Origin: a virus
Lineage: Duplodnaviria; Heunggongvirae; Uroviricota; Caudoviricetes
IMG/VR virus record: IMGVR_UViG_2617270976_000016
Location: 1 to 23,498 of that record
DNA: 23,498 nt
Reading direction: 5' to 3' (one strand)
This document shows, piece by piece, positions 319 to 23,498 of the stretch (position 1 is its first letter; each line of letters begins with the position of its first letter). Under the pieces are notes generated by a model. It was not told where the DNA came from, ran no database searches, and saw only the letters and a list, made by a program, of their open reading frames with translations. A program made the translations under genes and the position numbers.

Positions 319-561
319 ATGTTCGTGGAACTCGTTTATGACAAAAGGAATTTTGATGGTCTGCCAGATGCAAAAGATATCATTCTGGGCGAATTGACCA
401 AGAGGGTTCGCAGGATTTTACCCAATGCTGATGTTCGGGTTAAACCGATGATGACACTGCCATCGAACAACACTGACGCCAGCAAGCATGAGAAGGAACA
501 GATAAGCCGTGCTGTTCAGGAAATGTTTGAAGAAGCTGATATGTGGCTGGTTTCAGATTAA
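319..561 (+). CDS. dinI: DinI-family protein (DNA-damage-inducible protein I homologue)
   Basis: 80 aa; translation aligns by eye with E. coli DinI (acidic C-terminus ending ...WLVSD); RBS AAAGGGG upstream; LexA box in promoter. Confidence 0.8.
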   Translation: MFVELVYDKRNFDGLPDAKDIILGELTKRVRRILPNADVRVKPMMTLPSNNTDASKHEKEQISRAVQEMFEEADMWLVSD

Positions 562-7524: not shown

Positions 7525-7901
7525 TTCCAGAACTCCACTTTGACAAAACGACGTTTGAAACGCGAGACAGGAAGGAAGGTAACGTTCACTCCTGGGTTGC
7601 ACTCTGCGACATGCAATTGGCCGTTAATTTCAACGACTACACCAACATGAGTAACGGTTGACCCGGAATAACAGGCGGCACCGGCACCTATACACGGCGC
7701 GCATTTTTCCAGAGAAAGCATGAGCTTTCTGGCCTCTCGGTTTAAACCTCCGCCGTCTTTTGTTATACCTGAAAAATCTGGCCACAGTGGTAGCCCCAGG
7801 TCTTTTCGTACCTCGTTCACTATGCCGAAGCAGTCAAGTTCAGGATAAGTGCGACCGCCCTTCTGCCATATGACAGAAAGGTATTTATCAGGATTGAACA
7901 T
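7521..7901 (-). CDS. NlpC/P60 (C40) peptidase-domain tail protein
   Basis: 126 aa; Cys motif (ELDCFG) and downstream His (THVGVVV) typical of NlpC/P60 catalytic residues; position in tail-tip module. Confidence 0.5.
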   Translation of the reverse strand: MFNPDKYLSVIWQKGGRTYPELDCFGIVNEVRKDLGLPLWPDFSGITKDGGGLNREARKLMLSLEKCAPCIGAGAACYSGSTVTHVGVVVEINGQLHVAECNPGVNVTFLPVSRFKRRFVKVEFWK

Positions 7902-8393: not shown

Positions 8394-8863
8394 GGCTCAG
8401 GCCACTCCCTGTTAAGCGCAATATCAATGATGCTGCTGTTGATAATGTAATCAGGAAAATCAGCCCAGCCAGGAGCCAGAACAGGCCTTTCCCACAATTC
8501 CAACGTGGCCGTGTAGCGCCAGTAGTTTCCGCCTTCAATTGTCGGCCCCTCATAGATATCCACGAAACGACAGACATAAACATCAACAACGCCTAACGGA
8601 GATCGAAGAGGCATGTTAAACCAGTCAGCGCCATCCTTAATGGTGTCCCTGAACCATACCTCAAATAGTTGAGCTTCCGGATCCGTAAGCAGCCATGCAA
8701 CCGAGGCCTGAGTTGGCGTTGAAGTATATAATCTCCTCTGCCTCGCCCTGCCGGATGTGAGTTCGGTTCTCAGTAATGGGCTAACTGGCTTTAACCCGAA
8801 CCCTTCCTGCAATGGAACAGGAAGGTAATCATTCGGATAGTTAATGCTGGTCGTTTTAGCCAT
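8390..8863 (-). CDS. Phage tail protein (distal tail protein-like, immediately after tape measure)
   Basis: 157 aa; start overlaps tape-measure stop as TAATG at 8861-8865. Confidence 0.4.
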   Translation of the reverse strand: MAKTTSINYPNDYLPVPLQEGFGLKPVSPLLRTELTSGRARQRRLYTSTPTQASVAWLLTDPEAQLFEVWFRDTIKDGADWFNMPLRSPLGVVDVYVCRFVDIYEGPTIEGGNYWRYTATLELWERPVLAPGWADFPDYIINSSIIDIALNREWPEP

Positions 8864-10189
8864 TAACCAGTTCTCCTGTTAGTGTTCCAGCGCATCATTG
8901 CTTTCGAAATGTCACCTTTCCCACTGGCAAGGTCGCTGGCTGCCTGTTGATATCCAAGTTTTGCCCCCTCTGCCATGGCTTGCTTCATCATGGAGATCTG
9001 AGTATCAGACGGATCACCGTTAACATTCATGTTAATAACGGGAGAGAAGCTTGCTCCGCTGGTTGATTGTTGATTTACTCTGTCCAGTGTTTCATCAAGC
9101 TTTGCTGACGTCTGAGAGGTCACAACTCGCTCACCTTTCTGGAGCAACCATGTTCCTGTTTCCGGGACGCTATCAATACCATCGTGCGCCATACCTGCCA
9201 GGGCAGAAGTACCAACTGCTGCAACAAGTGGTGCAGTTACTGCCGCAGCTGTTGCCATCGCTGCAGGTGCAAGCGCGGGACCAACGATAGGAATTGCCGC
9301 TGTCGATGCGTATGCTGCGATTTGAGCCTGCAAAGATGATGCCTGTGCGTTTGCCAGCATTGATGCCGCTGCGCTTGCCTGAGTGGATTTACCTACCAGC
9401 AATTGCACTGCCTGATATACCAGCCATTGCGCCGCCATATCAGAAAGGGTTTTAATGATTGTTTCACCAAGACCAGAGAAAATATTACTGAAGAAATCAC
9501 CTAAATCTTCTGCACCGTGCACAAGGTCATTAAGGTTGTCAGAAATAACCGAGGTTGCTCCACCAAGAATAGAAGTCATCGCATCTGCAGCAGTCTGGTA
9601 ATAATCAGCTGATTTATCAGCATAATCATTCAACGAGTCCATTATCCCGCTTTGCCAGTCGCCCATCTGAGCATCAGACTTTTTGTAGTAGTCCTCCTGA
9701 ATATCAAGACGGTCATCAAGCGCCTGCTGTAACGCTGCCGTTTCCTGGTCATAAAGCGATTTGCTTATATCACCACTTTGGTACTGTTTCTGTAGATCTT
9801 GCTGCCTGTCGAGAAAACTACGATGGATATCCAGCAATTCCTTCATGCGCTGGCGAGTCTTGTCTCCCATACCTGCGCCGATAAAATCAGAATCATTAGC
9901 TGCCTGGTCATTCTGATTTTGCTTACGTAAATTAGCGGTAAATTCGACAAGTTTCAGATTTTCTTCGTTGGCTTTTTTAAGTGAGTTGAGGCGATCTATC
10001 TCAGTAGCAAGTTGCTCAAGTCGCTCTTTCTGAGCTGCATTAATTCCTGTTAATTTCCCAGATGTAAAATCAAAACGCAGCTTCTCAAGCTCGGTTAGAG
10101 GCCAAACAGATATCGGAATGGAACGCTGGCATAAACCAGCACAACGAAGTACGCCAGCAATGATATAGCGGGGCGATGTCTTGCCCCTT
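8863..10189 (-). pseudogene. Tail tape-measure protein, 3' remnant (N-terminal part deleted)
   Basis: Ala/Gly-rich hydrophobic C-terminal region typical of tape-measure proteins; frame is open with no start codon from 9870 up to a stop near 10190; first ATG only at 9870; no upstream head or tail-tube genes. Confidence 0.5.
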
Positions 10190-10271
10190 CACGCTGGTAG
10201 AACATCAGGACAAGGACAATGACTGCACAAATACCTGCATTCACCATCGCTGACGGATCACTTGTTACCAT
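10095..10271 (-). CDS. Small two-helix membrane protein (possible holin/antiholin-like)
   Basis: About 58 aa from ATG 10271; two hydrophobic segments; start overlaps the end of the upstream holin-like gene. Confidence 0.3.
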   Translation of the reverse strand: MVTSDPSAMVNAGICAVIVLVLMFYQREGARHRPAISLLAYFVVLVYASVPFRYLFGL

Positions 10272-10653
10272 TGCTGGCCCCTCCTCCACGGAATCGCGAA
10301 AGAATACTGAACAGGCTTCCCAAATCCTGACTGTTGAAAAATGTGAGCACTTTGATTGTCATCGCCGCCACTACAACAGCACCAAGTGCGTCTAATGGTC
10401 TGTCACTATACCCGGTAGCCTGTGACAACTTTGAACCAACCAGGCCAGCAGCAAGAACGCCAACAATGAATGACGTCATGAAGTAAGCAATCAATCGTAC
10501 TCGTGTGATATTTGCCGCTGTCGCTACATAAAATACTGCACCAGCGAATGCGCCAAATACCACGCCATAATCAATACCGGTTGCAAGACCAAATACGCTG
10601 GCTCCCATCAGGCCACCAGCCGCAACCGTAGTGCCAGAAACAGGATCGGACAT
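10258..10653 (-). CDS. Holin-like membrane protein
   Basis: 131 aa from ATG 10653 with strong RBS GAGGGGG; Gly/Ala-rich transmembrane segments; first gene after the Q-proximal cassette. Confidence 0.45.
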   Translation of the reverse strand: MSDPVSGTTVAAGGLMGASVFGLATGIDYGVVFGAFAGAVFYVATAANITRVRLIAYFMTSFIVGVLAAGLVGSKLSQATGYSDRPLDALGAVVVAAMTIKVLTFFNSQDLGSLFSILSRFRGGGASNGNK

Positions 10654-10695
10654 TAAGCCCCCTCTTATTGCTGTGAGTCCTCTCAAAACGAGGGG

Positions 10696-11428: not shown

Positions 11429-11457
11429 ATTTAAGCACTTTCTTGCTCACCCTGCAA
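11429..11457 (-). promoter_or_regulatory. Candidate late promoter PR-prime (-35 TTGCAG, 17-bp spacer, -10 TTAAAT overlapping the Q stop codon)
   Basis: Hexamers read on minus strand; predicted transcript of roughly 60-70 nt ends at the terminator at 11353-11386. Confidence 0.35.
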
Positions 11458-12009
11458 CTTAAATCTGTCGCTATTTGTGCCGAATGCGTCACAAACTGGA
11501 GCGTACAGGATCGATTCTGCCAGACTTAGCCAAGTGTCAATGCGTCGACGACAGGTAATCAGCGGCCAGTCAGAATGTTTAGCCTGCAATTCATTGGCCA
11601 TCTGCAACTTGCTTTTACGTAGGCGATGGCGATCGACAATCACGCTATAGAGCGATCGGTAGTCATCATTCATCAGTACAGAAGCAATCACACCGTCCAC
11701 TAACAGCCCTTCTTCGTCTGAACAGAACGCCAGGCCGCTTTTATTTTTGCTGTTGAGGATTTCACGCAGGTACACTTCAAGTTCTGGTTTGCTGATACCC
11801 GCTTTCTTCATCCGGCGTAGCGCTTCGTTAATTGCCGTTTTGGTGATTTTCCCGGATGCCAGAAGCTGGTTAAACATGTTCCCACCACTACCACCGCCGA
11901 TATAAGACCAGCGGCCCCACATGCGCAACTTACCCTGTATCCAGATGCTTTCCAGAGTACGAAGACGAACCATTTCACCAGATTTACCAACTTCAGAAGG
12001 ATTAATCAT
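11431..12009 (-). CDS. Late-gene antitermination protein Q-like
   Basis: 192 aa; W-G-R-W motif region (LRMWGRWSY) resembling Q-family antiterminators; sits between nin-like genes and the lysis module; RBS GGAGA. Confidence 0.55.
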   Translation of the reverse strand: MINPSEVGKSGEMVRLRTLESIWIQGKLRMWGRWSYIGGGSGGNMFNQLLASGKITKTAINEALRRMKKAGISKPELEVYLREILNSKNKSGLAFCSDEEGLLVDGVIASVLMNDDYRSLYSVIVDRHRLRKSKLQMANELQAKHSDWPLITCRRRIDTWLSLAESILYAPVCDAFGTNSDRFKLQGEQESA

Positions 12010-12023
12010 TTAGCGTTCTCCAC

Positions 12024-13013
12024 TTACGCCAGTACGCCGATTGCCAGCGCACGATCTATAACCCGAAACACCAGGACCAGCTGGTCACCGTATTTCGCTT
12101 CAAATGCCACAGGATCAGCATGCAACTCGTCGTGATGCTCTCTGCACAGAGGAATCACAAACAGGTCGTGTGCCTTTGTACCCATTCCACCCTGCCCGTG
12201 GCCAATCAGATGGTGGGGGTCGTCAGCTTGCTTGTTACAGCAGACACACGGCTGGGACTTAACCCATCTCGTGTATTTCTCATTTACCCAGCGACGACGC
12301 TTGGGTTTAAGCATGAAGGATTCCGGCGTCTCCGGGTCTACCTTCATTGCCACTATCTTTTTCGCTTTCTCCTGTACCAGTTGTTGAGCGGGTAATGTCG
12401 GAACAATATCGCTTTCACGTGTTACCGACTGGTTAGTCTCTTCCTTCAGACGAAGGGCTTTATAGGCTACGGCTTCAGGTATCTCGTCAGCCAGGTCGTT
12501 CCTTACCATCCACCAGCAAAACTCCGGCAGCGTAAGAACGTGGTCTTCATTGAAGCCTAATTGACCGTTTACGACCTTCAGAAGCCAGGATACCAGGTTT
12601 TGGCGGGCAATACCCGCCAGACCTTCAGTGAACTGCTCACGAATTTTTAAGTCACAGCCCCAGCACGTGCGGATTGAGCCAGGCGCATGTCGGGTGATGG
12701 TGTAGTTGCGATCGTGCCACTCGCTATGTGGGTACTGACATTCCAGTTTTCTTTCGAGCCATGCATCCAATGAATTGAGGCCACCAGCACGATGTATTAC
12801 CTTCTGATTTTCGAAGACATCACGCATTAGCGGATCGTTCTGAAGCTCCTGAGTAGTCTCAGGCAGCATACCAGAAGGTAACTCAGCCATTGACTCTGCC
12901 TGTGGCTCTATAAGGACACGTCCACGTCTGAACAGATGCATCAGTTCACTGCCTGGGCGAAATATCACTACCCCGGTCATGGGTGCCACTTCAGGTGTCA
13001 GTAGTACCCTCAC
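12024..13013 (-). CDS. DUF968-like phage protein with C-terminal Cys/His cluster
   Basis: 329 aa; C-terminal CVCC…HH…H…C…HH pattern; GTG start at 13013 overlaps upstream stop as GTGA (alternative ATG at 12980). Confidence 0.45.
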   Translation of the reverse strand: MRVLLTPEVAPMTGVVIFRPGSELMHLFRRGRVLIEPQAESMAELPSGMLPETTQELQNDPLMRDVFENQKVIHRAGGLNSLDAWLERKLECQYPHSEWHDRNYTITRHAPGSIRTCWGCDLKIREQFTEGLAGIARQNLVSWLLKVVNGQLGFNEDHVLTLPEFCWWMVRNDLADEIPEAVAYKALRLKEETNQSVTRESDIVPTLPAQQLVQEKAKKIVAMKVDPETPESFMLKPKRRRWVNEKYTRWVKSQPCVCCNKQADDPHHLIGHGQGGMGTKAHDLFVIPLCREHHDELHADPVAFEAKYGDQLVLVFRVIDRALAIGVLA

Positions 13014-13735
13014 GCTATCTGCCCCTTAGCAATATGCTCTGCCCACAGGCCACCAATCCAGCGAACACCCTTGGCGGTGAAGCGGGACTGATTGAATGCG
13101 TAATTTGTCTGGTTTGTCGTGCCCGTCTTCACCTCGAAGCGCCCTGCTTCGATATGTTTGCTCTTTGGTGTGAGAACACGGTTAAGCCGGTACATGATGC
13201 CGTTCTCAATCAGGAACATCGCAAACTCTGGCTCTTTGGCATTAAGCAGCTTTGCAACCTGTCGGAATGTCATTGAACCAGTCGCCGTCACATAACGATC
13301 GACGAACTCAGCTTTCGGCGCGGCTACTGCCAGTTCTTCACTCAGGCGCTGTTTCTGTTCTGCCAGATCAGCAGCAAGGCGCAGGGCCTCGGGAAGTGAC
13401 CGGGGGACAATCATTCCACCGTTGCTCTCCAGTTCCTGCCAGCGGTCAACAAGTCGGGCGGTAAACTCCGGCGATAACTGGGCAACGATCACATAGCTGT
13501 CTCGTTTGTTCACTTCGTAGTGATGGTAGGTCTGCCCGTTCTGGGGATGGGTGTACTGCAATGCAGCATACCCTCCAATCACACCGGAATTCATAAGGCG
13601 CTCTATCGTTACGCAGACATTGCTATGCCGGGAATCAACCAGTTTCGCAATCTCACGGCTGGACATAGTGATCTGCTGCCCTACCGTTGCTGCATGATGG
13701 GTCGGACACGTTACTGTTATGCTCATCTGTTGCAT
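13010..13735 (-). CDS. Phage regulatory protein Rha / KilAC-domain antirepressor-like
   Basis: N-terminal Rha-like motif (MSSREIAKLVDSRHSNV) and C-terminal KilAC-like segment; start set at ATG 13735 with RBS GGAGA, downstream of the rusA stop. Confidence 0.55.
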   Translation of the reverse strand: MQQMSITVTCPTHHAATVGQQITMSSREIAKLVDSRHSNVCVTIERLMNSGVIGGYAALQYTHPQNGQTYHHYEVNKRDSYVIVAQLSPEFTARLVDRWQELESNGGMIVPRSLPEALRLAADLAEQKQRLSEELAVAAPKAEFVDRYVTATGSMTFRQVAKLLNAKEPEFAMFLIENGIMYRLNRVLTPKSKHIEAGRFEVKTGTTNQTNYAFNQSRFTAKGVRWIGGLWAEHIAKGQIA

Positions 13736-13751
13736 GCTCTGTCTCCACTTA

Positions 13752-14141
13752 TCAGGCGGCTGCACCCGCCACGGTTTCAAATCGGCTGATCGTTATCTCT
13801 ACCCTTCCAGGCTTTACTACAGGCCCCCATTCGATTGCCATCCGTTTAACCTGACTGTCGTCTTCCCAGACTCTGGCATTCGTCAGTGCGTCGAACAGCG
13901 CTTTGTTGTAATTGTCCAGATCCCGCCGTCTGTTATCTGGCGGGAAAAGAACTATGTTTACCTCAACGTTGACGTTAACTGGTTTAGGTATACCGCCGTA
14001 CTGCTCAACAACAGATGCGTAAACGTTCTTCTTGAATTTCCTACCCATCTCACTGATCAGATGCTTACCCTTTAACGCTCCACGGTCAGGTGACCGGTAA
14101 TAGGTGTTAACTGTTGGCGGGAATGGCAGCGTTAATTTCAT
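13752..14141 (-). CDS. rusA: RusA-family Holliday-junction resolvase
   Basis: 129 aa from ATG 14141; motifs LTLPFPPTVNTYY and RRRDLDNYNKALFDALT match RusA; ATGA overlap with upstream ORF. Confidence 0.8.
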   Translation of the reverse strand: MKLTLPFPPTVNTYYRSPDRGALKGKHLISEMGRKFKKNVYASVVEQYGGIPKPVNVNVEVNIVLFPPDNRRRDLDNYNKALFDALTNARVWEDDSQVKRMAIEWGPVVKPGRVEITISRFETVAGAAA

Positions 14142-14428
14142 TGCTGAACACCCCTCGCTTCCAGCCATGACAAGGCGCGTTCTCTTGAATCACTCTCACC
14201 GTTAATGAGTGACTTGATGATCGATATCGCGTCTGCCTCATCATTTCCTGAAATAACGGTGATCCCCCTGGAAACTCCAGGTGCTACTGAGATATATCCC
14301 TTCTTCGCTATATAACCCGTTGAGTTTCTGGCTCCCACCGGATAACCCTGACTGGGACGCCGTAGCTGTCTTTGAACCGTCTGTTGAGTGCTCGCATTCG
14401 ACCTTCTCCACCTGGCCGTTGAAATCAC
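14138..14428 (-). CDS. Hypothetical nin-region protein (possibly 3' part of a frameshifted gene)
   Basis: 96-aa frame whose stop overlaps the rusA start as ATGA; only its C-terminal half looks protein-like. Confidence 0.3.
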   Translation of the reverse strand: MISTARWRRSNASTQQTVQRQLRRPSQGYPVGARNSTGYIAKKGYISVAPGVSRGITVISGNDEADAISIIKSLINGESDSRERALSWLEARGVQQ

Positions 14429-14637: not shown

Positions 14638-15102
14638 TCACTTCTTTTGACGGCGGCTGAATAAGGCCACAATCGCGCGGATCTCTTCTTCACGTGCTGC
14701 CAAATGACGGCGGTGATGTTCCTGAATCTCTTCGGCTTCATGCTTTTCAATCACTCCATCCTCAAGCGCCTTCTGGATAATCTGATCAACCTGACCTCTT
14801 GCAGCTGCTGTACGCATTGCTCGACTGAACAAGTCAACACGGTCAAGATCTTCCAGGCTTGGTACATCCACCAGCAGCGCACCGCGACGCTTAGCAAAGT
14901 AGTCAGCAACGAATGACGTGTTGGAAATGTCTTCCATCGCTTCCAACTCGGTGACTTCAAAGAAACGACAACCGTTTTTCTCGTAAAGGTTGTTGTTGAA
15001 TTGGGTTTCTGACATGCCCAACGCACCAGCCATAGCTTGACGGCCTCCTGGGTACGCCTTACACATCGCTTTCACTACTTCTTTCAAAGTTTGCTCTACC
15101 AT
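14638..15102 (-). CDS. CII-like / YdaT-like phage regulatory protein
   Basis: 154 aa from ATG 15102 with RBS AAGGA; immediately downstream of cro-like gene, the usual position of cII; charged helical C-terminus. Confidence 0.4.
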   Translation of the reverse strand: MVEQTLKEVVKAMCKAYPGGRQAMAGALGMSETQFNNNLYEKNGCRFFEVTELEAMEDISNTSFVADYFAKRRGALLVDVPSLEDLDRVDLFSRAMRTAAARGQVDQIIQKALEDGVIEKHEAEEIQEHHRRHLAAREEEIRAIVALFSRRQKK

Positions 15103-15127
15103 CTTGTTTTTCCTTTGGTAGTTATGT

Positions 15128-15325
15128 TTAAGCTGCTGTGTCTGTAGACTTTTGGTAAAGGCTGGCATCGTATTTAAGCTTGCCTTTAGTGATACGTTCG
15201 ATAACAAAAGCTTGCTTCTGAGGGATCACATCACCCCATCTGCACACTGCAGGATGGGAAATTCCCAAAACACTCGCGGTTTTTGATACCCCTCCGAAGT
15301 GTTCTATGACGTCAGTTTTAAGCAT
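15128..15325 (-). CDS. Cro-like (YdaS-like) HTH repressor
   Basis: 65 aa; HTH segment (SKTASVLGISHPAVCRW); divergent from cI across an operator-rich intergenic region; RBS GGAGG. Confidence 0.7.
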   Translation of the reverse strand: MLKTDVIEHFGGVSKTASVLGISHPAVCRWGDVIPQKQAFVIERITKGKLKYDASLYQKSTDTAA

Positions 15326-15417
15326 GGTTCCTCCTGGTTAACTCACGCCTTAAAGGTAACAAAAGGTACATTAAATAGCAAACAACAGTTACAAGGAATC
15401 AATGTAACATTGGTTAC
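15326..15417. promoter_or_regulatory. OR-like operator/promoter region between cro and cI
   Basis: Contains 21-bp motif AAGGTAACAAAAGGTACATTA (15353-15373), perfect palindrome TGTAACATTGGTTACA (15403-15418) and further GTAAC/GTTAC half-sites; cI ATG has no SD. Confidence 0.55.
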
Positions 15418-16077
15418 ATGAAAACAGAGATGAAAGACCGAATAAGATCCCGGCGAGTCCAGCTCGATATAACTCAGCAGACCCTGGCTAAACGCCTTGG
15501 GGTGAGTAGAGTGTCCGTTACCAAATGGGAGAACGGTACAACTAAGCCTGACGGAGAAAACCTTCACCAACTAGCGATGGCTTTACAGACCACTCCTGAA
15601 TGGATTCTTTACGGCAAGGGTGATGAGACTCAAGATGACACCAAAGTTATCCCATACCTGAAGCCACCTACCGCCGTTCCTATTATCTCTGCTGTTCAGG
15701 CCGGGGTATGGACTGATACCTATGCATGCTCAAGGCTTACTGATGTGATTTCATGGACTCAAACCACAGCAAACGTTTCTGATGAAGTTTTCGGATTGGT
15801 GGTTCGTGGTGAGTCAATGACTAACCCACATGGACTTCCATCAATTCCGGAGGGCTCAATCGTTATTGTTGAGCCACATTACGGACAACTTGATGACCTG
15901 TATGGGAAAATTGTCGTAGCAATACTTGATGGTTCAGCAGAAGCGACTGTGAAGAAACTTGTTTGGGATAGCCCTTACTCATATCTCATGCCGCTTAATC
16001 CCGCCTTTAAGCCGATCCCCATTGATGGCAATTGCCGCATTGTAGGAAAAGTTGTTCAGATAACGCAGAACATCTAA
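15418..16077 (+). CDS. CI-type prophage repressor (N-terminal HTH, C-terminal LexA-like S24 peptidase domain)
   Basis: 219 aa; HTH (QQTLAKRLGVSRVSVTKWENG) and S24-like C-terminus (GESM…, VVKK…) read from translation. Confidence 0.85.
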   Translation: MKTEMKDRIRSRRVQLDITQQTLAKRLGVSRVSVTKWENGTTKPDGENLHQLAMALQTTPEWILYGKGDETQDDTKVIPYLKPPTAVPIISAVQAGVWTDTYACSRLTDVISWTQTTANVSDEVFGLVVRGESMTNPHGLPSIPEGSIVIVEPHYGQLDDLYGKIVVAILDGSAEATVKKLVWDSPYSYLMPLNPAFKPIPIDGNCRIVGKVVQITQNI

Positions 16078-16090
16078 GTAACTCATTTCT

Positions 16091-16120
16091 AATGCCAGAT
16101 ATCATTCTGGCATTTTTTTC
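16091..16120 (+). terminator. Intrinsic terminator after cI
   Basis: Stem AATGCCAGA/TCTGGCATT with 6-nt loop followed by TTTTTTT. Confidence 0.5.
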
Positions 16121-16126
16121 GCCTTC

Positions 16127-16184
16127 AAGGTAACAAAAAGTACATTAACTTACTTGACCGTCATGGTAACTAAAGGTACATTTA
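16127..16184. promoter_or_regulatory. OL-like operator region with candidate rightward early promoter (-35 TTGACC 16154-16159, -10 TACATT 16177-16182)
   Basis: Two copies of the OR operator motif (16127-16147 matches 20 of 21; 16163-16184 GGTAACTAAAGGTACATTT) overlapping the hexamers. Confidence 0.5.
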
Positions 16185-16243
16185 AAACACACCAGACGAA
16201 CCCATAGTTACATTCATCTGGTGATGCCTCGGTATCCTGTAAT

Positions 16244-16281
16244 GGCTGTCACTCCCCGCACTTTGTGGCAGCCATCTTTTT
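16244..16281 (+). terminator. Promoter-proximal intrinsic terminator downstream of the candidate early promoter
   Basis: 9-bp stem GGCTGTCAC/GTGGCAGCC (one G-U pair), 12-nt loop, then ATCTTTTT. Confidence 0.4.
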
Positions 16282-16709
16282 AGGGAGCATAAGGCGGTCG
16301 CGGTAAGCATCTCGCAGGGTTCTTACCGGGACTGGAAGAGTTACCACTTGGAGACGGTCCTTTTAAATGTCCTGGACAGTGGCGCTTTGGTCGCGATAAC
16401 AACCACTCCAGTTGATCCTGGGAGTTATCAGGTCAGTGAGATGCCAGCACTCTCGACGGCAGTGACAGCCGGAAGTAGACGGCGCAGCCCAGACGATATC
16501 TGAGTGGCTATAAAAACAGATGGACGTCGGTGGAATCCCGACAAATGGGTTTCATGTACCGAATGAACACATGATGACGCGGGGAAAGAACCGTGACAGG
16601 AGGGAAGTAGACCCCGCGAACACAACAGGTAAGAGCATTTGTATGTTGGCTGTGATTGTTAAGTCTATCGCAACGCCAAGATTGAAAATAATGCAGTGCT
16701 CTTACCGTT

Positions 16710-16786
16710 GTGGCATTAGCTCAGTTGGATAGAGCAACGGCCTTCTAAGCCGTGGGGCGCAGGTTCGAATCCTGCATGCTGCACCA
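16710..16786 (+). tRNA. Phage-borne tRNA-Arg, anticodon UCU
   Basis: Cloverleaf traced by hand: D-stem GCTC/GAGC, anticodon stem ACGGC/GCCGT with loop CTTCTAA, T-stem GCAGG/CCTGC with TTCGAAT loop, 3' ACCA; acceptor stem has two G-U pairs. Confidence 0.8.
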
Positions 16787-16840
16787 GAATCACGTAGCCA
16801 GTGTGGTACCAGGAAGTAAGAAAGCTGTGTGGAGTCTTGG

Positions 16841-16884
16841 CGGTACCAGTACCAACCTTTGAAGTCCCTGGTACCGCCCTTTTT
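16841..16884 (+). terminator. Hairpin plus T-run downstream of tRNA-Arg (probable terminator)
   Basis: 9-bp stem GGCGGTACC/GGTACCGCC followed by CTTTTT; palindromic GGTACC occurs three times in 16805-16875. Confidence 0.35.
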
Positions 16885-16885
16885 A

Positions 16886-16968
16886 CTCAACTGAAAGCGC
16901 GTTCTGTCCCTTGTCATTAAGTGCCAGGTCGTTAAATCCAAAACCAGCGGAACGCGCTTTCAATTGAG
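16886..16968. repeat. 19-bp imperfect inverted repeat around a 45-bp spacer
   Basis: CTCAACTGAAAGCGCGTTC (16886-16904) pairs with GAACGCGCTTTCAATTGAG (16950-16968), one mismatch. Confidence 0.6.
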
Positions 16969-17116
16969 TGGAGAAACTAACCGGCGATTGCAGTCGCCCG
17001 TTTCACTAAGTGCCTCTTCATGGGGCATTTACTGAAACGAAACCAAAACTTTTATTCGCCTTTTGGCGAGGGATTCGTGCAACCAAAATTCAGCGGATTT
17101 TTCCACTGGAGGACTA

Positions 17117-17272
17117 ATGAACCACCTCGAATTTATTGAGAAGAACGTAAGGGAAATCCTTATTAAACAAGGTTTTTCCTCTTCAGTGGCTCAGGGGGGG
17201 CATGGCAAGCACTTGATTTATATAAGCGAATGTCACAAGCCAGTAAAAAAGGCGCGATTTTTGACGATGTGA
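17117..17272 (+). CDS. Small hypothetical protein (51 aa)
   Basis: ATG at 17117 preceded by GGAGG (short 4-nt spacing); no family recognised. Confidence 0.25.
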   Translation: MNHLEFIEKNVREILIKQGFSSSVAQGGHGKHLIYISECHKPVKKARFLTM

Positions 17273-17429
17273 TGAGGCATGCAAAAGCCTGGGCAGATAA
17301 GCAGGTTTCAAAGTCCGAAGTCACAAAAAGAAAACGTGCCCAACCTAAAGACCAAGGTGGCCTCTTTTAAGTATCAAGGCCAAAGAATTCAGCGCCGTGC
17401 AGGGCGCATAAAACACGGAGAAACTAACC

Positions 17430-17912
17430 ATGACGACCACACAGAATGTCACTGAGTTACAACCACGTATGACCAGAGAGCAACTGATCGATGCAGCGCG
17501 TAAAGCCGCCCCTCTCCTTCCGGTTGCTTACCGCGGGATCATGACCGAACTGGCTAACCGTCTTGATATCGTCAGCGTGGCGCTTTGCGAGTCAATGGAA
17601 CAGCGTAAAGCACTGGCCATCGAGAACACCGTTTTACGAGACGATGTTAATTGTTGGGCCAAAGAGTGCGACCGCATCGTTGAACGTCATACCAAATCGC
17701 CGACCAATATGCACATGCTGGAGGCGCAGAGAGAATTACGCGAGCTAACTCCAGTAACCGATCAGGTTATTCGCGATATCCAGGCCACTGGCGTGGAAAA
17801 GTACGCAAACGTCACTATTGCCATAGGGAAAGAAGAGCAAGAAGAAAGCATTGTTTACGCTGGTAATCAGGCTCTGTTATTCGCTAACCAACTTCGTGAA
17901 GGTACTGCGTAA
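17430..17912 (+). CDS. Hypothetical early protein (first gene of early operon)
   Basis: 160 aa; RBS GGAGA; stop overlaps next start as TAATG. Confidence 0.4.
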   Translation: MTTTQNVTELQPRMTREQLIDAARKAAPLLPVAYRGIMTELANRLDIVSVALCESMEQRKALAIENTVLRDDVNCWAKECDRIVERHTKSPTNMHMLEAQRELRELTPVTDQVIRDIQATGVEKYANVTIAIGKEEQEESIVYAGNQALLFANQLREGTA

Positions 17913-18952
17913 TGGCCGCCAACTCATTCAAACAGATGTCCCGTGACGGGACCATCAAGCGCACCGATACCGGGATGTTTATTAGCCTTGAACATATCCA
18001 CGTGCGTGAAGGTTTCAACAAGCGTGAAGACGACGAACGCACACGCCAGGCAGATGACGAACTGTTTAACTATCTGATGAACGGCGGTACCGTTCCTCCA
18101 CTGGAGGTTATCGCACGCGATGAAGGCGGTGTGTGGGTTGTTGAGGGTCACCGCCGTCGCCGTTGCTATGCGCGTTGTGCTGAAGCAGGTAAGCCAGTAG
18201 ACCGCATTCATATCATGCCTTTCAACGGTAACGATGTGCAGCGTCTGGCTCGCATCATGACCAGTAATAACCAACTCCCCCTTTCCGATATTGAACAGGC
18301 TGCTGTTATTCAGGAGCTTCATAATGCTTTCAACCAGACCACCAGCGAGATTGCAAAGCTGGTCAATAAGTCTGTAGCGACCGTTGAGAAGTTGCTCACT
18401 CTGAGCACCGCTAATTATGACGTTCAGCAGGAAGTTAAATCTGGTGCCGTATCTGTTGATGTTGCTGTTGACCGCGTTCGCGAGTTTGGCGAACAAGCTG
18501 GTGAGGTTCTCCAGCACGATAAAGCCGTAGCCGCCGCCCAGGGAAAAACAAAGGTTACGCGCAGTTCTATCGCGCCTGAACTCAACATTAAAAGTGCTCG
18601 CCGTTTTGTGGAGTTAATGGCCATGGCGACGATTAGCGATGAAGGCGTGTTCACTTTGCAAGGCACGGCACTGGCTGAAGCTCTGGCGATCATCGACGAA
18701 CATAAAACCATTGCTGAAGCTCGCGAAACCTATCGCCTTTCACAGCCAATCCCTACTACAGAAATTATCGGGAAGGTGCTGTATGTGAAGCTGGACGGTA
18801 AGGAAATCGGCTCGGCAATAATTTATCGCGGTAAGAACGTCACGCTCGACCTAGGTGATAGAAAAATAATCGCCAGCCAGTCAAAAGCAGTGGCCCACTT
18901 CGTTAAACAACACAAACTTCAGCAGGTACATACCAATGCAAACGATCAATAA
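17912..18952 (+). CDS. ParB/Srx-like nuclease-domain protein
   Basis: 346 aa; N-terminal ParB-like motif region (VVEGHRRRRCYA); translationally coupled to neighbours. Confidence 0.5.
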   Translation: MAANSFKQMSRDGTIKRTDTGMFISLEHIHVREGFNKREDDERTRQADDELFNYLMNGGTVPPLEVIARDEGGVWVVEGHRRRRCYARCAEAGKPVDRIHIMPFNGNDVQRLARIMTSNNQLPLSDIEQAAVIQELHNAFNQTTSEIAKLVNKSVATVEKLLTLSTANYDVQQEVKSGAVSVDVAVDRVREFGEQAGEVLQHDKAVAAAQGKTKVTRSSIAPELNIKSARRFVELMAMATISDEGVFTLQGTALAEALAIIDEHKTIAEARETYRLSQPIPTTEIIGKVLYVKLDGKEIGSAIIYRGKNVTLDLGDRKIIASQSKAVAHFVKQHKLQQVHTNANDQ

Positions 18953-19508
18953 CCGTATGACAGAAACTCAAATTGCTGATCTCTTCAGCCTGGCGGTTCA
19001 GTTGCAGGTTAAAGCTGAAGAATCAGATGATCGTGATACTGCAATTTTGGCCTACTCAATTCAAAACGCCTGCTCAAATTTAACGGAATCCCAGCGCGAG
19101 TTCCGTGCAGCAGACGCGACTATTCACAATCTGGAACTGAAAATCACAGAGATGGCAGTACAGCTAGCTAACGCCGATAGCAAGTGCAGGGAGCTGGCGG
19201 GGGTAGTTGCTGAGAACGCTGATTTAAAATCTCTGATTGAACAACATGCAGCCTCTATCGCTGTATGTCCTAACTGCTCACACGAAGAGCCAAGCGAAAC
19301 TGACGACATCGTTGCGCTTTATCGCTCAATGGAAACCCCAGCCACCGACGCTTTCCTGGCTGAAGTGCGGACGCAGGGTGTGGAAGGATTCTTGAAGTTT
19401 TGCGGTGAGGAAAATTCCGTATTTGTCGAGGCTAAAGCTTACTACCGGTCGCTATCGGATGCGGTTGATGAGTTCGCCGCCCGACTTCGCAAAGGAGCCG
19501 CTCTATGA
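18936..19508 (+). CDS. Hypothetical coiled-coil protein (Ea22-like by context)
   Basis: 190 aa, or slightly shorter from ATG 18957; central heptad-like helical region; CPNC motif. Confidence 0.35.
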   Translation: MQTINNRMTETQIADLFSLAVQLQVKAEESDDRDTAILAYSIQNACSNLTESQREFRAADATIHNLELKITEMAVQLANADSKCRELAGVVAENADLKSLIEQHAASIAVCPNCSHEEPSETDDIVALYRSMETPATDAFLAEVRTQGVEGFLKFCGEENSVFVEAKAYYRSLSDAVDEFAARLRKGAAL

Positions 19509-20158
19509 GCAACCGATTCTACATGCTGTGTACACGAGAAACTGTCGGGAACAACGCGTCATTCCACTGCCACAACGGAAACGGGTATAGCTCAAACATC
19601 GACCGCGCTCACGTGTATACCCGCGAAGAGGCACAACACAGCTGGGATTTAGGCAGAGAGATTGATCAGCCAGTTTGCGCAGCCAGCGTTGATTCCTTGG
19701 CTACCTGGCATGTCGACTGCCAGTACATTCCTGCTGAAAGTGTTATTGAGCCCGGATGCGAGGCCTACGTGGCCTACAAAAAAGGAAGCTGGAACGGCAA
19801 CGATGTGTACTGGCTGCAACATGGCGGACTTCCAACAGATGACTTCAGTAAGGCATTCATTTTTGTTTCCGCTAACACAGCGGAGCCTGGAATTGTCTGG
19901 ATTCCTTTTTCCTTGGCTGACAAGGCTAAGCGCCGCACATTCAGCATCAATGAATTTAATCGCCGCACCATGGTACAGGCGGCAGGGCTGGTTATGCCTG
20001 AATGGTTGAAAAAACAAAACCGCAGGAAAAAGGCACGAAGTGGCAAGGTCCGCTGGAATTGTCCGCACTGCGGAAAAATCAGTTGGCAGTACAACCCATA
20101 TGATTTTGATGGTTGCCGCGACTACTCATGCGAAGGATGGAGGCCAAATGACAACTAA
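19505..20158 (+). CDS. Hypothetical protein with C-terminal Zn-ribbon-like Cys cluster
   Basis: 217 aa; C-terminal CPHCG…C…C; ATGA overlap with upstream gene. Confidence 0.4.
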   Translation: MSNRFYMLCTRETVGNNASFHCHNGNGYSSNIDRAHVYTREEAQHSWDLGREIDQPVCAASVDSLATWHVDCQYIPAESVIEPGCEAYVAYKKGSWNGNDVYWLQHGGLPTDDFSKAFIFVSANTAEPGIVWIPFSLADKAKRRTFSINEFNRRTMVQAAGLVMPEWLKKQNRRKKARSGKVRWNCPHCGKISWQYNPYDFDGCRDYSCEGWRPNDN

Positions 20159-20741
20159 CAACCACCCGGCGAACGGTCCTGTATCACTCGATCGCCTGCA
20201 CCAGATACGCGAAATACTCAGCAAAGCAGCAGCACAAAGCGATGGCGGTAATCTCGGCTACGCAATGGCTGATGCTGTGAAGGTGATTGATGGGATGATT
20301 TCTCGCGAACTGGTACGCCGTGAACATGCAGCATGGTCACTGGCTACTTTCGGCGATGTCGGTCCAGTTGGTCCGCTAAAGCACCTTTCCAAAGAAGCGC
20401 TCGAGGCTGCTGCTGAACCCGGCGACCTTAGCGAATGGGCTGACATGCAATTCCTGTTATGGGATGCGCAACGTCGTGCCGGTATCAGTGACGAGCAGCT
20501 TACCCAGGCGATGGTGGAAAAGTTGGCGGTTAACAAACAGCGCGAATGGCCTGAGCCGAAAGACGGTGAGCCAAGGCTACATATCAAGGAATCCGACAAC
20601 TCGTTTGTGGCTCCGGAGGGGACGGCCTGCAAATACTGCGGCGGTACAGGTTATTTCCGTTGGAAAAAATCCGCAAATACCTTCCCGTGTCCATGTATGG
20701 GATGCGATTTGCCAGCAGCACCTCTGCAGGAGGTGAAGTGA
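20148..20741 (+). CDS. DUF550-type (MazG-like dATP/dGTP pyrophosphohydrolase-domain) protein with C-terminal Zn-ribbon
   Basis: 197 aa from ATG 20148 (RBS GGAGG); N-terminus MTTNNHPANGPVSLDRLHQIRE matches my recollection of DUF550 prophage proteins; C-terminal CKYCGG…CPC. Confidence 0.5.
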   Translation: MTTNNHPANGPVSLDRLHQIREILSKAAAQSDGGNLGYAMADAVKVIDGMISRELVRREHAAWSLATFGDVGPVGPLKHLSKEALEAAAEPGDLSEWADMQFLLWDAQRRAGISDEQLTQAMVEKLAVNKQREWPEPKDGEPRLHIKESDNSFVAPEGTACKYCGGTGYFRWKKSANTFPCPCMGCDLPAAPLQEVK

Positions 20742-20827
20742 TGCCGCCAGTTAAAGTGGTTGTTATTACCGTGGTGATGCTAGCGATCTGCCAGTTAGTT
20801 TCTATGACGGGATATGGCATATGGTGA
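20741..20827 (+). CDS. Possible 28-aa hydrophobic peptide (MPPVKVVVITVVMLAICQLVSMTGYGIW)
   Basis: ATG overlaps upstream stop (TGATG) and its own stop overlaps the next ATG; single TM-like segment; not in the ORF track because it is too short. Confidence 0.25.
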   Translation: MPPVKVVVITVVMLAICQLVSMTGYGIW

Positions 20828-21099
20828 GCAAGCTAAAACAGCGTCGCATACGCCGACTGAAAGCCGATGTAGCATGGTGGAAATCTGAAGCTGAGTACTG
20901 TAAGGCGCGAGTGTTCGAACAGGCAAACGAAATTGCTGAACTAAGAAGCATGGTGATTCGTGTACCAATGCCGGTAATGGTGCCAGTAGAGATACTTCAT
21001 CAGCTAAATGGGAAGGGATCGAAAGAATATCCATTATGTCGCAATTGCAACGATGGAACCCGTCACGGGTGTTCATCGTGTGCTTACAGAATGAAGTAA
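20821..21099 (+). CDS. Hypothetical small protein with coiled-coil N-terminus and C-terminal 4-Cys cluster
   Basis: 92 aa; CRNC…GCSSC pattern. Confidence 0.4.
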   Translation: MVSKLKQRRIRRLKADVAWWKSEAEYCKARVFEQANEIAELRSMVIRVPMPVMVPVEILHQLNGKGSKEYPLCRNCNDGTRHGCSSCAYRMK

Positions 21100-21132
21100 C
21101 CGGGTGCAGCCGGTTTAAGTGGAGAACTAACT

Positions 21133-21360
21133 ATGAGCGGACAAATCCAACGTTTTCTTACTCCAGATGACCTCTATCAATTAACTGGTTATCGTCGCCC
21201 TTCCCTACAGTGTAAAGCTCTGAGGGATAGTGGGGTATTTTTTATCCCACGCAAGGACGGAAGGCCAGGAACAACATGGGATCATGTATCAAACCCTGTT
21301 GGACTTAAGTTAATAGTGAGCAATCCAGAGGAAGAAGAACCAAACTTTAAGGATATGTAA
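21133..21360 (+). CDS. DUF4224-like protein, putative excisionase / recombination directionality factor
   Basis: 75 aa; motif LTPDDLYQLTGY; stop overlaps integrase start as TAATG. Confidence 0.5.
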   Translation: MSGQIQRFLTPDDLYQLTGYRRPSLQCKALRDSGVFFIPRKDGRPGTTWDHVSNPVGLKLIVSNPEEEEPNFKDM

Positions 21361-22370
21361 TGTCTAGAGCTCGCAAAAACCCTGAGGATAACTGGATGCC
21401 TCCTCGCGTTCGACGGGGAAAATCTGCTTATGAGTTTCGTACAACAGATGGTCGTACCGTCAGGTTGTGCAATCCTGATCTAACAAAATCGCAGGTATGG
21501 GCAGCTTACGAAAACTTCATAAACGATTTAAAGGTTGGTACGAACTTCAACGCACTTTGTGAAGAATTCTTTAATTCCGGTGATTTCCACGAGTTAGCAA
21601 CTGAAACACGTAAAGACTACAGAAAATACGGTTCAAAGGTAAATGTTGTCTTCGGGAAAATGAAGCCGGATAACATCAAGCCAGAGCACATCAGAAAATA
21701 TATGGATAAACGAGGTGTTAAGAGCAGGGTTCAGGCAAACCGCGAGAAAGCATTTATGTCCAGGGTGTTTCGGTGGGCATACGAACGAGGAAAGGTGAAG
21801 ATGAATCCTTGCCAGGGCGTAAAGCAATTTAAAGAGCAGGCTCGGACCCGTTATATTAGCGATAGGGAATATGATGCACTTTATAGCGTTGCTTCTATTC
21901 CCGTAAAAGTTGCAATGGAGTTGGCATATCTATGTTGCGCCCGCCAGGGAGACATTCTTGACCTCAAAAAGAGTCAATTATTGAGCGAAGGAATTTTAAT
22001 TCAGCAGAGTAAAACCGCAGTTAGCCAGATCAAGGCCTGGACAAAACGTCTGGAGGATGCCGTTAATCTTGCTGACAGCATTCCTCTTAACAGCGGGATG
22101 GTAAGTATTTTTGTCATCCACCAGCCATCAGGTCTGCGATACACACGCGATGCTTTTAATGCGCAATGGATGAAGACTAAAAAACTTGCTGCTGAAAAAT
22201 ATCCAGACCTTGATTTCCAGTTCACTTTTCATGATCTAAAAGCCAAAGGAATTTCTGATCTTGAAGGTACGTTAAGTGAGAAGCAGGAAATTTCAGGTCA
22301 TAAAAACGCCTCGCAAACAGCGAGATATAATCGAAGAATTTCAGTTGTTCCGGTCGTCGGGGGGCAGTAA
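21360..22370 (+). CDS. int: Tyrosine-type phage integrase
   Basis: 336 aa; C-terminal catalytic region with HDLK and H…ARY motifs; adjacent to a tRNA gene. Confidence 0.9.
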   Translation: MSRARKNPEDNWMPPRVRRGKSAYEFRTTDGRTVRLCNPDLTKSQVWAAYENFINDLKVGTNFNALCEEFFNSGDFHELATETRKDYRKYGSKVNVVFGKMKPDNIKPEHIRKYMDKRGVKSRVQANREKAFMSRVFRWAYERGKVKMNPCQGVKQFKEQARTRYISDREYDALYSVASIPVKVAMELAYLCCARQGDILDLKKSQLLSEGILIQQSKTAVSQIKAWTKRLEDAVNLADSIPLNSGMVSIFVIHQPSGLRYTRDAFNAQWMKTKKLAAEKYPDLDFQFTFHDLKAKGISDLEGTLSEKQEISGHKNASQTARYNRRISVVPVVGGQ

Positions 22371-22495: not shown

Positions 22496-22582
22496 TGGTA
22501 CCCGGAGTGGGACTTGAACCCACACAGCGCGAACGCCGAGGGATTTTAAATCCCTTGTGTCTACCGATTCCACCATCCGGGC
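22496..22582 (-). tRNA. leuZ: tRNA-Leu, anticodon UAA
   Basis: 87-nt minus-strand sequence matches my recollection of E. coli leuZ, long variable arm, 3' CCA encoded. Confidence 0.95.
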
Positions 22583-22594
22583 TCGGGAAGAAAG

Positions 22595-22668
22595 TGGAGG
22601 CGCGTTCCGGAGTCGAACCGGACTAGACGGATTTGCAATCCGCTACATAACCGCTTTGTTAACGCGCC
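22595..22668 (-). tRNA. cysT: tRNA-Cys, anticodon GCA
   Basis: 74-nt minus-strand sequence matching E. coli cysT as recalled. Confidence 0.95.
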
Positions 22669-22722
22669 AAATTCTTCAGGCCTTTCAGCCAGACATCCGC
22701 TTGAGGCCGATGTCTTTTAAAC

Positions 22723-22798
<76 letters not shown>

Positions 22799-22949: not shown

Positions 22950-23498
22950 TCACTGATCAAGCAAATCTGCACGCGCAGCGCTCAAATATTGCAACATTGA
23001 CCACAGAGTCAGTACCGCAGCCACAAAGAAAAGTGCAATACCGGCGTACTCAACCCAAATGTTCGGACGCCACAGCAGCCAGGCCAACGCCACCATCTGG
23101 GCCGTAGTTTTCACTTTCCCAATCCAGGAGACAGCCACGCTACTGCGTTTACCCAACTCCGCCATCCATTCGCGTAGCGCAGAAATAATAATTTCACGGG
23201 CGATCATCGTTGCCGCCGGTAAGGTCACCCACCAGCTGTGATAATGCTCGGTTACCAGCACCATGGCGATAGCCACGAGAACTTTATCTGCGACAGGGTC
23301 AAGGAAAGCACCAAACCGGGTACTCTGGTTCCAGCGGCGTGCCAGAAAACCATCGAACCAGTCAGTCACCGCCGCGACGCAGAAAATGAGCGCGGCGGCA
23401 AACGGCGACCAGGTGACAGGCAGATAAAAGACCAATACAAAGAATGGGATAAGGATGACACGGAACAGTGTAAGCAACGTAGGGATATTAAATTGCAT
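22950..23498 (-). CDS. pgsA: CDP-diacylglycerol--glycerol-3-phosphate 3-phosphatidyltransferase
   Basis: 182-aa translation matches E. coli PgsA as I recall it; conserved pgsA-glyW-cysT-leuZ synteny. Confidence 0.95.

Follow-up and report, generated by a model that had tools for sequence, protein, structure and literature searches.

A phage tRNA-Arg(UCU) gene with a conserved G3·U70 pair in the putative pL leader of a defective lambdoid prophage

The DNA analyzed here comprises all 23,498 nucleotides of IMG/VR virus record IMGVR_UViG_2617270976_000016 (hereafter "the window"). One of the four tRNA genes that ARAGORN found in the window lies beside the immunity region of a lambdoid prophage. 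This gene, a tRNA-Arg with anticodon tct (UCU), occupies positions 16710-16786 of the plus strand, is 77 nt long, encodes its CCA end and reads GUGGCAUUAGCUCAGUUGGAUAGAGCAACGGCCUUCUAAGCCGUGGGGCGCAGGUUCGAAUCCUGCAUGCUGCACCA. Rfam family RF00005 matched positions 16710-16783 at 68.9 bits (gathering score, 29; E = 2.4e-13) over model positions 1-71 of 71. The original prediction, made from the letters alone, had claimed a complete UCU tRNA at this place. ARAGORN bears this out at exactly the same ends, and the covariance model is matched in full with a score well above its threshold. The gene is an intact tRNA-Arg(UCU).

The acceptor strands 5'-GUGGCAU and AUGCUGC-3' form the pairs G1-C72, U2·G71, G3·U70, G4-C69, C5-G68, A6-U67 and U7-A66, followed by A73 and CCA. 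The two G-U pairs that had been noted in the acceptor stem are U2·G71 and G3·U70, the latter formed by G at 16712 and U at 16780. We examined the cloverleaf in an alignment of 20 sequences, in which 16 variants of the family to which this tRNA belongs (15 besides the window copy) were joined by two types of host argU and two genes of jumbo phages. Pairing was kept in 99.8% of 420 cells, and nine pairs were altered on both sides. None of 500 shuffles matched the observed values, and slid controls were 25-47% paired. The window copy has a single private substitution (G47, in the variable loop), and each of its stems pairs. The bacterial arginine identity set consists of A20, C35, U/G36 and A/G73 (Giegé and Eriani 2023, PMC9976931). 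This set, recognized by arginyl-tRNA synthetase (ArgRS), is complete in the window tRNA (A20, C35, U36 and A73). The presence of A20 follows from the D-loop, AGUUGGAUA, which is the D-loop of argU. The tRNA would thus be expected to be charged with arginine.

The tRNA had also been described as related to but distinct from argU (dnaY), and a comparison with genuine E. coli argU, taken from loci L098 and L101, agrees with that description: 67 of the 77 positions are alike (87%) and 10 differ. The differences are confined to four acceptor pairs (C2-G71 to U·G, G3-C70 to G·U, C4-G69 to G-C and C6-G67 to A-U), one compensated anticodon-stem pair, one variable-loop base and the discriminator, which is G73 in argU and A73 in the window tRNA. 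The anticodon, D-arm, anticodon loop and T-arm are identical, and A20, C35 and U36 of the ArgRS identity set are common to both. In some other hosts, argU itself has a G1·U72 pair (GCGCCCU/AGGGCGU; L060, L070 and similar loci, near prophage ends), so the phage copies are not alone in having wobble pairs in an argU-type acceptor stem.

The element that carries the gene (Table 1) is a deleted, defective lambdoid prophage beside host genes for tRNA-Leu, tRNA-Cys, tRNA-Gly and PgsA; in the host flank, identity to E. coli is 99%. We call it defective because genes for terminase, capsid, most of the tail and replication are missing: the Pfam map of the prophage contains no terminase, portal, capsid, endolysin or replication (O/P-like) genes and lacks most tail genes. 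The lost replication genes are present in a related E. coli prophage (L001). We ruled out that the tRNA is the remnant of an attachment site or a hybrid host tRNA, since it is a full-length gene 4.6 kb away from int, and the prophage end abuts tRNA-Leu. The same tRNA is also found inside packaged phage genomes, which likewise argues against an attachment-site origin.

Table 1. Features annotated in the window (position 1 is its first letter)
Feature	Position	Strand	Basis
DinI	319-561	+	Pfam
AT3-SGNH acyltransferase, G+C about 0.30-0.35	888-2849	+	Pfam
Tailspike	2913-4754	-	Pfam
J-like tail protein	4807-7602	-	Pfam
Small tail genes and C-terminal piece of tape-measure gene (8863-9870)	to 9870	-	Pfam
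Holin, adjoining the tail fragment	10258-10686	-	Pfam
Q-like antiterminator	11431-12009	-	Pfam
DUF968	12024-13013	-	Pfam
Rha/ANT	13010-13780	-	Pfam
RusA	13752-14168	-	Pfam
CII-like	14638-15207	-	Pfam
Cro	15128-15325	-	Pfam
CI-type repressor (helix-turn-helix and Peptidase_S24)	15418-16077	+	Pfam
1.35-kb gap containing the tRNA	16078-17429		Gene map
cI transcript terminator (16091-16114), 9-bp stem then T7	16091-16121	+	Terminator scan and sequence
Putative oL operators, two copies of oR repeat CGCCTTAAAGGTAACAAAAGGTACATTAA, overlapping pL	16120-16184	+	Direct repeats D1
Putative early-left promoter pL, TTGACC-17-TACATT	16154-16182	+	Consensus promoter scan
5' leader hairpin, arms AAC-A-GGTAAGAGCA (16624-16637) / TGCTCTTACC-GTT (16697-16709)	16624-16709	+	RNAfold
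tRNA-Arg(UCU) gene; A20, C35, U36, A73	16710-16786	+	ARAGORN, Rfam RF00005
Small 3' hairpin, ATCACG...TGTGGT	16789-16807	+	RNAfold
Intrinsic terminator of the tRNA module, GGCGGTACCAG / CTGGTACCGCC then CTTTTTAC	16839-16885	+	Inverted repeat I23, RNAfold
Two further hairpins: 20-bp stem 16885-16969, 16-bp stem 16999-17039	16885-17039	+	Inverted repeats I1, I8
Early-left genes (ParB-like, dATP/dGTP pyrophosphohydrolase, DUF4224)	17430-21360	+	Pfam
First open reading frame of the early-left operon, 160 amino acids	17430-17912	+	Open reading frame list
Integrase (int)	21360-22370	+	Pfam
Host tRNA-Leu, tRNA-Cys, tRNA-Gly	22496-22798	-	Gene map
pgsA (host)	22950-23498	-	Gene map

An exact-pattern scan of IMG/VR with the 5' half of the tRNA returned 55 viral contigs. 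Together with three database loci and the window, these make a family of 59 copies and 18 sequence variants. BLAST of the flanks placed the copies in two unrelated genome contexts, about 20 lambdoid prophages and about 35 epsilon15-like genomes. Most of the lambdoid loci share the whole of 16692-17095, tRNA included, at 77-97% identity (94-97% for the closest), and 17386-17584 is often shared too; E. coli prophages likewise contain 16692-17095. A prophage of E. coli 2017C-4173W12 has the same gene order (repressor, tRNA, ParB-like gene, int). In the epsilon15-like carriers, among them Klebsiella phage ST512-KPC3phi13.3 and the Salmonella phages SPN1S and SPN9TCW, the tRNA is flanked by the terminase and portal genes and is read from the opposite strand. 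The two contexts have the same architecture, although an alignment of one with the other covers no more than about 105 nt (16689-16794). The copies of Salmonella phages SPN1S, SPN9TCW and SPC32H (Uetakevirus) and of the Klebsiella phage are 91-93% identical to the window, flanks included, and share with it the GUGGCAU strand, the leader hairpin, the 3' hairpin and the terminator. Unlike the window, they have the terminase-portal site, the opposite strand and an upstream region of their own. Position 70 separates the two lineages: the Salmonella phages have G3-C70, and the Klebsiella phage has G3·U70 as in the window.

The family is rare in representative genomes. Among the GTDB representatives, the first pattern had no match and a pattern from the 3' half had one, in Citrobacter portucalensis A60; of 5,426 complete E. 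coli genomes, only 4 gave an alignment that spans the tRNA. The Citrobacter copy (L165 960-1036) has G in place of the near-universal U8 and is therefore probably decaying. Annotation of such genes is not new. Dozens of phage records carry annotated argU-like tRNA-Arg genes, and members of the same family are annotated as tRNA-Arg in SPN9TCW, ST512-KPC3phi13.3 and E. coli RefSeq genomes. The gene by itself adds little, as phage tRNAs for rare arginine codons are well known. Three features are out of the ordinary: (i) a position in the pL leader and not in the late operon, (ii) a hairpin-flanked mobile module and (iii) the conserved G3·U70 pair. The original prediction had called the position unusual but had missed both the module and G3·U70.

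As had been pointed out, the tRNA lies between the CI gene and the early-left genes that begin at 17430, and neither ARAGORN nor the Pfam map places a tRNA between the Q-like gene and the holin. Shiga-toxin and other lambdoid phages carry the ileZ-argN-argO tRNAs between Q and the stx or lysis genes, in the late operon downstream of Q and pR'. Those are likewise arginine tRNAs for rare codons in lambdoid prophages and are thought to aid the translation of phage genes rich in AGA and AGG. In contrast, the window tRNA is a single gene with a terminator of its own and sits beside the immunity region, in what appears to be the pL leader. A 29-nt oR sequence (15346-15374) recurs after cI at 16120-16148 (93% identical) and 16156-16184 (76%), and within these repeats lies the only promoter-like site that a consensus scan of 15200-17600 reported on either strand. 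We read this site and the repeats as oL/pL. The tRNA has the same orientation as pL and follows it at a distance of about 520 nt, past the cI terminator. The same scan found no promoter of its own for the tRNA, and an AATAAT seen by eye at 16687-16692 has no usable -35 element. A gene that lies downstream of a CI-controlled pL and after the cI terminator, and has no promoter of its own, should be made upon induction. The window tRNA should thus be expressed from pL, as the first early-left product, and be repressed in the lysogen. We excluded cotranscription with cI in the lysogen, in the manner of rexAB, because a strong terminator follows cI and the oL/pL repeats intervene.

Immediately around the tRNA is a set of conserved hairpins. 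The leader hairpin upstream has a loop of about 50-60 nt that differs between lineages, and its arms covary among lineages (GGTAAGAGCA/TGCTCTTACC, GATGAGAGCA/TGCTCTCTTC, GAAAGCGCACTCC/GGAGTGCGCTTCC and GAGAA/TTCTC). In both genome contexts the 5' arm begins with AAC and the 3' arm finishes with GTT directly before G1, and the 3' arm ends at position -1, with 0 nt left before G1, in 20 of the 23 distinct arm variants listed. Downstream, RNAfold of 38 distinct flanks gave a hairpin of 6-8 bp that begins 3 nt past CCA and whose stem is kept despite changed letters (ATCACGCC...CGTGAT, TATCACG...CGTGGTA). Next comes an intrinsic terminator with an 11-bp stem at 16839-16878 followed by CTTTTTAC. Its stem covaries as well (GGCGGTGGCAG/CTGACCACCGCC and GGCGGTCGG/CCGACCGCC); the consensus terminator scan missed it because the loop is 18 nt. 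The two further hairpins, which precede the first early-left open reading frame, are conserved alongside the tRNA in the lambdoid relatives. Taken together, the leader hairpin, tRNA, short hairpin and terminator constitute a conserved mobile noncoding module, and all phage copies of the tRNA are accompanied by such hairpins and a terminator. E. coli argU differs in this respect: it has a strong TTGACT/TATAAT promoter of its own about 40 nt upstream, a short leader and no flanking hairpins.

The AGA/AGG enrichment expected from the original prediction was found when codons were tabulated for the prophage open reading frames and for 48 annotated genes that a related E. coli strain has in this region of its chromosome. 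AGA occurs 9.3 times per 1000 codons in the prophage and 2.9 times in the host genes (about threefold; odds ratio, 3.2; p = 2e-8), and AGG occurs 7.0 and 0.7 times (tenfold; odds ratio, 10; p = 3e-14). The lambdoid loci that carry the tRNA have 6.6 AGA and 5.9 AGG per 1000 codons. Because of this enrichment, we regard a rare-codon supplement as the best explanation. We favor, as probable though far from certain, that the gene encodes a working phage tRNA-Arg(UCU) which derives from argU, decodes AGA and, more poorly, AGG, travels in a mobile module and supplements the rare-codon supply upon induction. This reading builds on direct observations (the gene and its cloverleaf, the ArgRS nucleotides, the position relative to oL/pL and the terminators, the module and the codon enrichment) and adds a sequence of events that remains conditional. 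The module would be transcribed first from the CI-repressed pL when the prophage is induced, RNase P and 3' processing would free the tRNA from the pL transcript, and the supply of the host's rarest arginine tRNA would rise before the AGA/AGG-rich phage genes are translated. Expression from pL, such processing, charging with arginine and a gain in fitness are inferred. In the present prophage, from which the replication, head and most tail genes have been lost, the tRNA is probably carried along silently by the lysogen.

The original prediction had further suggested that the tRNA supports translation of the AT-rich acyltransferase gene at the prophage end. Its premise was correct: AGA encodes 9 of the 17 acyltransferase arginines, including R23 of an R-X10-H stretch, a motif that is presumably conserved in AT3 acyltransferases, so that AGA is used where an arginine is expected. 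The gene has a G+C content of about 0.30-0.35, compared with about 0.49 elsewhere. Because of its AT3-SGNH domains, its low G+C content and its position at the prophage end, it looks like a lysogenic-conversion gene and would be expressed in the lysogen. The suggestion itself was not supported, since a pL-controlled tRNA would be made on induction and the acyltransferase gene, 14 kb away, is taken to be expressed in the lysogen.

Several observations weigh against a supplement of rare-codon supply. The prophage is defective, so no lytic cycle is left here for the tRNA to serve. A UCU anticodon reads AGG poorly, yet AGG is enriched more than AGA. The epsilon15-like loci that carry the tRNA show only a modest enrichment (3.0 AGA and 4.1 AGG per 1000 codons). 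Plain codon supply also leaves the conserved G3·U70 and the tight flanking hairpins unexplained, and the acceptor- and anticodon-stem changes from argU are without explanation.

The first of these points could be taken further, in that the tRNA may be an inert relic, a silent remnant of a decaying prophage without current function in this genome. We consider this possible but on balance unlikely. Terminase, capsid and most tail genes are gone, the holin gene now lies beside the C-terminal fragment of the tape-measure gene, the replication genes of the relative L001 are missing, pL should be repressed by CI, and the Citrobacter portucalensis copy has already suffered the U8G change. However, the window copy is intact, with its one private change in the variable loop and all stems paired, and decay would concern the present copy only and not the nature of the element.

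Codon supply does not account for G3·U70, which is the major identity determinant for alanyl-tRNA synthetase (AlaRS). U70 is present in 54 of the 59 family copies, in at least 16 sequence variants and in both genome contexts; C70 is confined to the five copies of the SPN1S-like Salmonella group. In 12 of the 59 copies, the discriminator is G73. Among the tRNAs that ARAGORN called in the fetched viral loci, a set chosen for argU-like genes and thus biased as a background, G3·U70 occurs in all 4 tRNA-Ala genes and, among 269 distinct non-alanine tRNAs, is restricted to this family, two jumbo-phage tRNA-Arg(UCU) genes and one dubious call. The two jumbo-phage genes are argU-like and lie on contigs of 174 and 144 kb (L095 1843-1919 and L116 234-310). 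Their acceptor stems, CGGGGCA/UGUCUCG and CCGCGCA/UGCGUGG, both combine G3·U70 with A73, and the pair may therefore recur specifically in phage tRNA-Arg(UCU).

These data raise the question of a dual identity, in which host AlaRS would alanylate part of the tRNA pool and AGA would be read partly as alanine during phage growth, either as a tolerated side effect or as a selected perturbation of host or phage proteins. We regard this as doubtful. The bacterial alanine set is A73, G2-C71, G3·U70, G4-C69 and G20 (PMC9976931), and three of the five (A73, G3·U70 and G4-C69) are found in the window tRNA, which also shares G1-C72 with tRNA-Ala and with mutant tRNAs that have acquired G3·U70. A precedent exists in yeast tRNA-Pro(UGG), where a lone C70U substitution with the anticodon intact led to Pro-to-Ala mistranslation in vivo (PMC5389508); in contrast to such laboratory or spontaneous mutants, the phage G3·U70 is natural and conserved. 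In addition, Asp400 of E. coli AlaRS touches G3 at its 2-amino group but meets nucleotide 71 at the ribose and not at the base (PMC6055181). The window tRNA differs from tRNA-Ala, however, in having U2·G71 instead of G2-C71, A20 instead of G20, an arginine anticodon and the full ArgRS set. Because of U2·G71 and A20, we do not file it as a tRNA-Ala and treat cross-charging only as a possibility. The tandem U·G/G·U may alter helix geometry, and with its determinants complete, ArgRS should compete strongly with AlaRS; like the loss of G2-C71 and G20, both points speak against a sizeable effect. Further points against alanylation are that AGA encodes R23 of the acyltransferase, an arginine expected to matter, and that the SPN1S lineage manages with G3-C70 and no other change, so that U70 is not indispensable. 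Our literature search on the effect of a U2·G71 neighbor on AlaRS found nothing decisive.

We would give similarly little weight to the broader proposal that G3·U70 has long been kept either because ArgRS and AlaRS both charge the tRNA or because the tandem U2·G71/G3·U70 is a natural anti-determinant that blocks AlaRS. The pair is nevertheless stable in a nonalanine tRNA of the organism in which the G3·U70 rule was defined. Either the virus would encode an ambiguous decoder, or the context (tandem U·G/G·U, A20 and ArgRS competition) would cancel the strongest known identity determinant. In the first case, phage induction would bring a regulated Arg-to-Ala ambiguity at AGA, and the gene would be a natural virus-encoded mistranslating tRNA in the Enterobacteriaceae; in the second, the anti-determinant would add new information to the alanine identity rule.

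The stem changes from argU would find a use if the phage copy were a spare that replaces host tRNA-Arg(UCU) depleted or cleaved by a tRNA nuclease of the host or of a competitor, its altered stems escaping recognition. We judge this improbable. Phage T5 tRNAs have been reported to rescue infection from tRNA-cleaving defense systems, and the window tRNA departs from argU in four of its seven acceptor pairs and in one pair of the anticodon stem. The gene neighborhood also fits. In Klebsiella phage ST512-KPC3phi13.3, a Tad2-like anti-Thoeris gene (L002 5305-5826; PF11195, E = 4e-26) lies on the same strand as the tRNA module, directly downstream of the module and a second terminator, as part of a block that is inserted in the opposite orientation between terminase and portal. 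In a related prophage of E. coli TST3, a BRCT-domain gene on the opposite strand (L166 1439-2320) replaces the tRNA between the repressor gene and the ParB-like operon. With such neighbors, the module occupies a variable accessory region in both phage types, beside the repressor in the lambdoid one. This neighborhood is circumstantial, however, and a nuclease that recognizes the anticodon loop would cleave the phage tRNA and host argU alike, since their loops are identical. Colicin D cuts all arginine isoacceptors, and we know of no defense nuclease specific for tRNA-Arg(UCU).

The hairpins, for their part, may serve processing or the protection of RNA ends produced by RNase P and 3' cleavage. 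In the strongest form of this idea, the main role of the tRNA would be RNA punctuation: a processing site for RNase P and RNase E that frees a hairpin-capped leader and a hairpin-protected downstream RNA, by analogy with tRNA punctuation in mitochondria and with 3'-end formation of MALAT1 by mascRNA. Such a role would agree with the covarying 5' hairpin that ends at -1, with the second hairpin 3 nt after CCA, with the long structured leaders of the two contexts (window, about 520 nt; Klebsiella phage ST512-KPC3phi13.3, about 330 nt) and with the short, hairpin-free leader of host argU. It is nonetheless a long shot as the main function. The leader has no known function, its sequence differs between the contexts except in the hairpin arms, and a search of leader and trailer in the window and in the Klebsiella phage returned no Rfam family but tRNA at E < 0.05. 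Moreover, punctuation alone would not require the strict conservation of the tRNA identity set and anticodon. Nevertheless, a module in the pL leader of phages that lack a recognizable N gene offers a testable case for tRNA-directed processing of early transcripts.

An antitermination signal of the lambda nut/rrn boxA type or an HK022 put RNA was also considered, since the position, just downstream of pL and upstream of terminators in a phage without a recognizable N gene, matches. The boxA sequence is TGCTCTTTAACAA in rrn operons and CGCTCTTAC in lambda nutR. The 3' arm of the leader hairpin contains the boxA-like TGCTCTTAC, which, unlike lambda boxA, is base paired in a covarying stem, and we identified no boxB/N pair. 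A lambda-type nut site was rejected on these grounds and because 16078-17455 contains only short open reading frames, none with a Pfam match and none N-like. Homology to HK022 putL was rejected as well, as blastn-short against the HK022 cI-pL-nun region gave chance-level matches only.

The leader and its surroundings contain several further repeats. A short hairpin in the pL leader, GGTAAG...CTTACCG at 16301-16328, has the same arm sequence as the hairpin adjoining the tRNA. The sequence GGAAGTAGAC is present twice in the leader, at 16471-16485 and 16603-16617 (132 nt apart), and a related hairpin loop, GGAAGAGAC, lies upstream of the tRNA in epsilon15-like phages (L002 4925-4941). The 290 nt at 17096-17385, between the conserved hairpins and the first early open reading frame, are found in few tRNA-carrying relatives (L008, L010 and L041) and hold short basic open reading frames of 46 and 58 amino acids without a family match. 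In the Klebsiella phage leader, a second copy of the ACACAAC...GGAGTGCGCTTCCAGGT hairpin type (L002 4709-4780) lies just past a TTGACC promoter-like site and about 240 nt before the tRNA; a hairpin of this type abuts the tRNA directly in some lambdoid prophages (L010 type).

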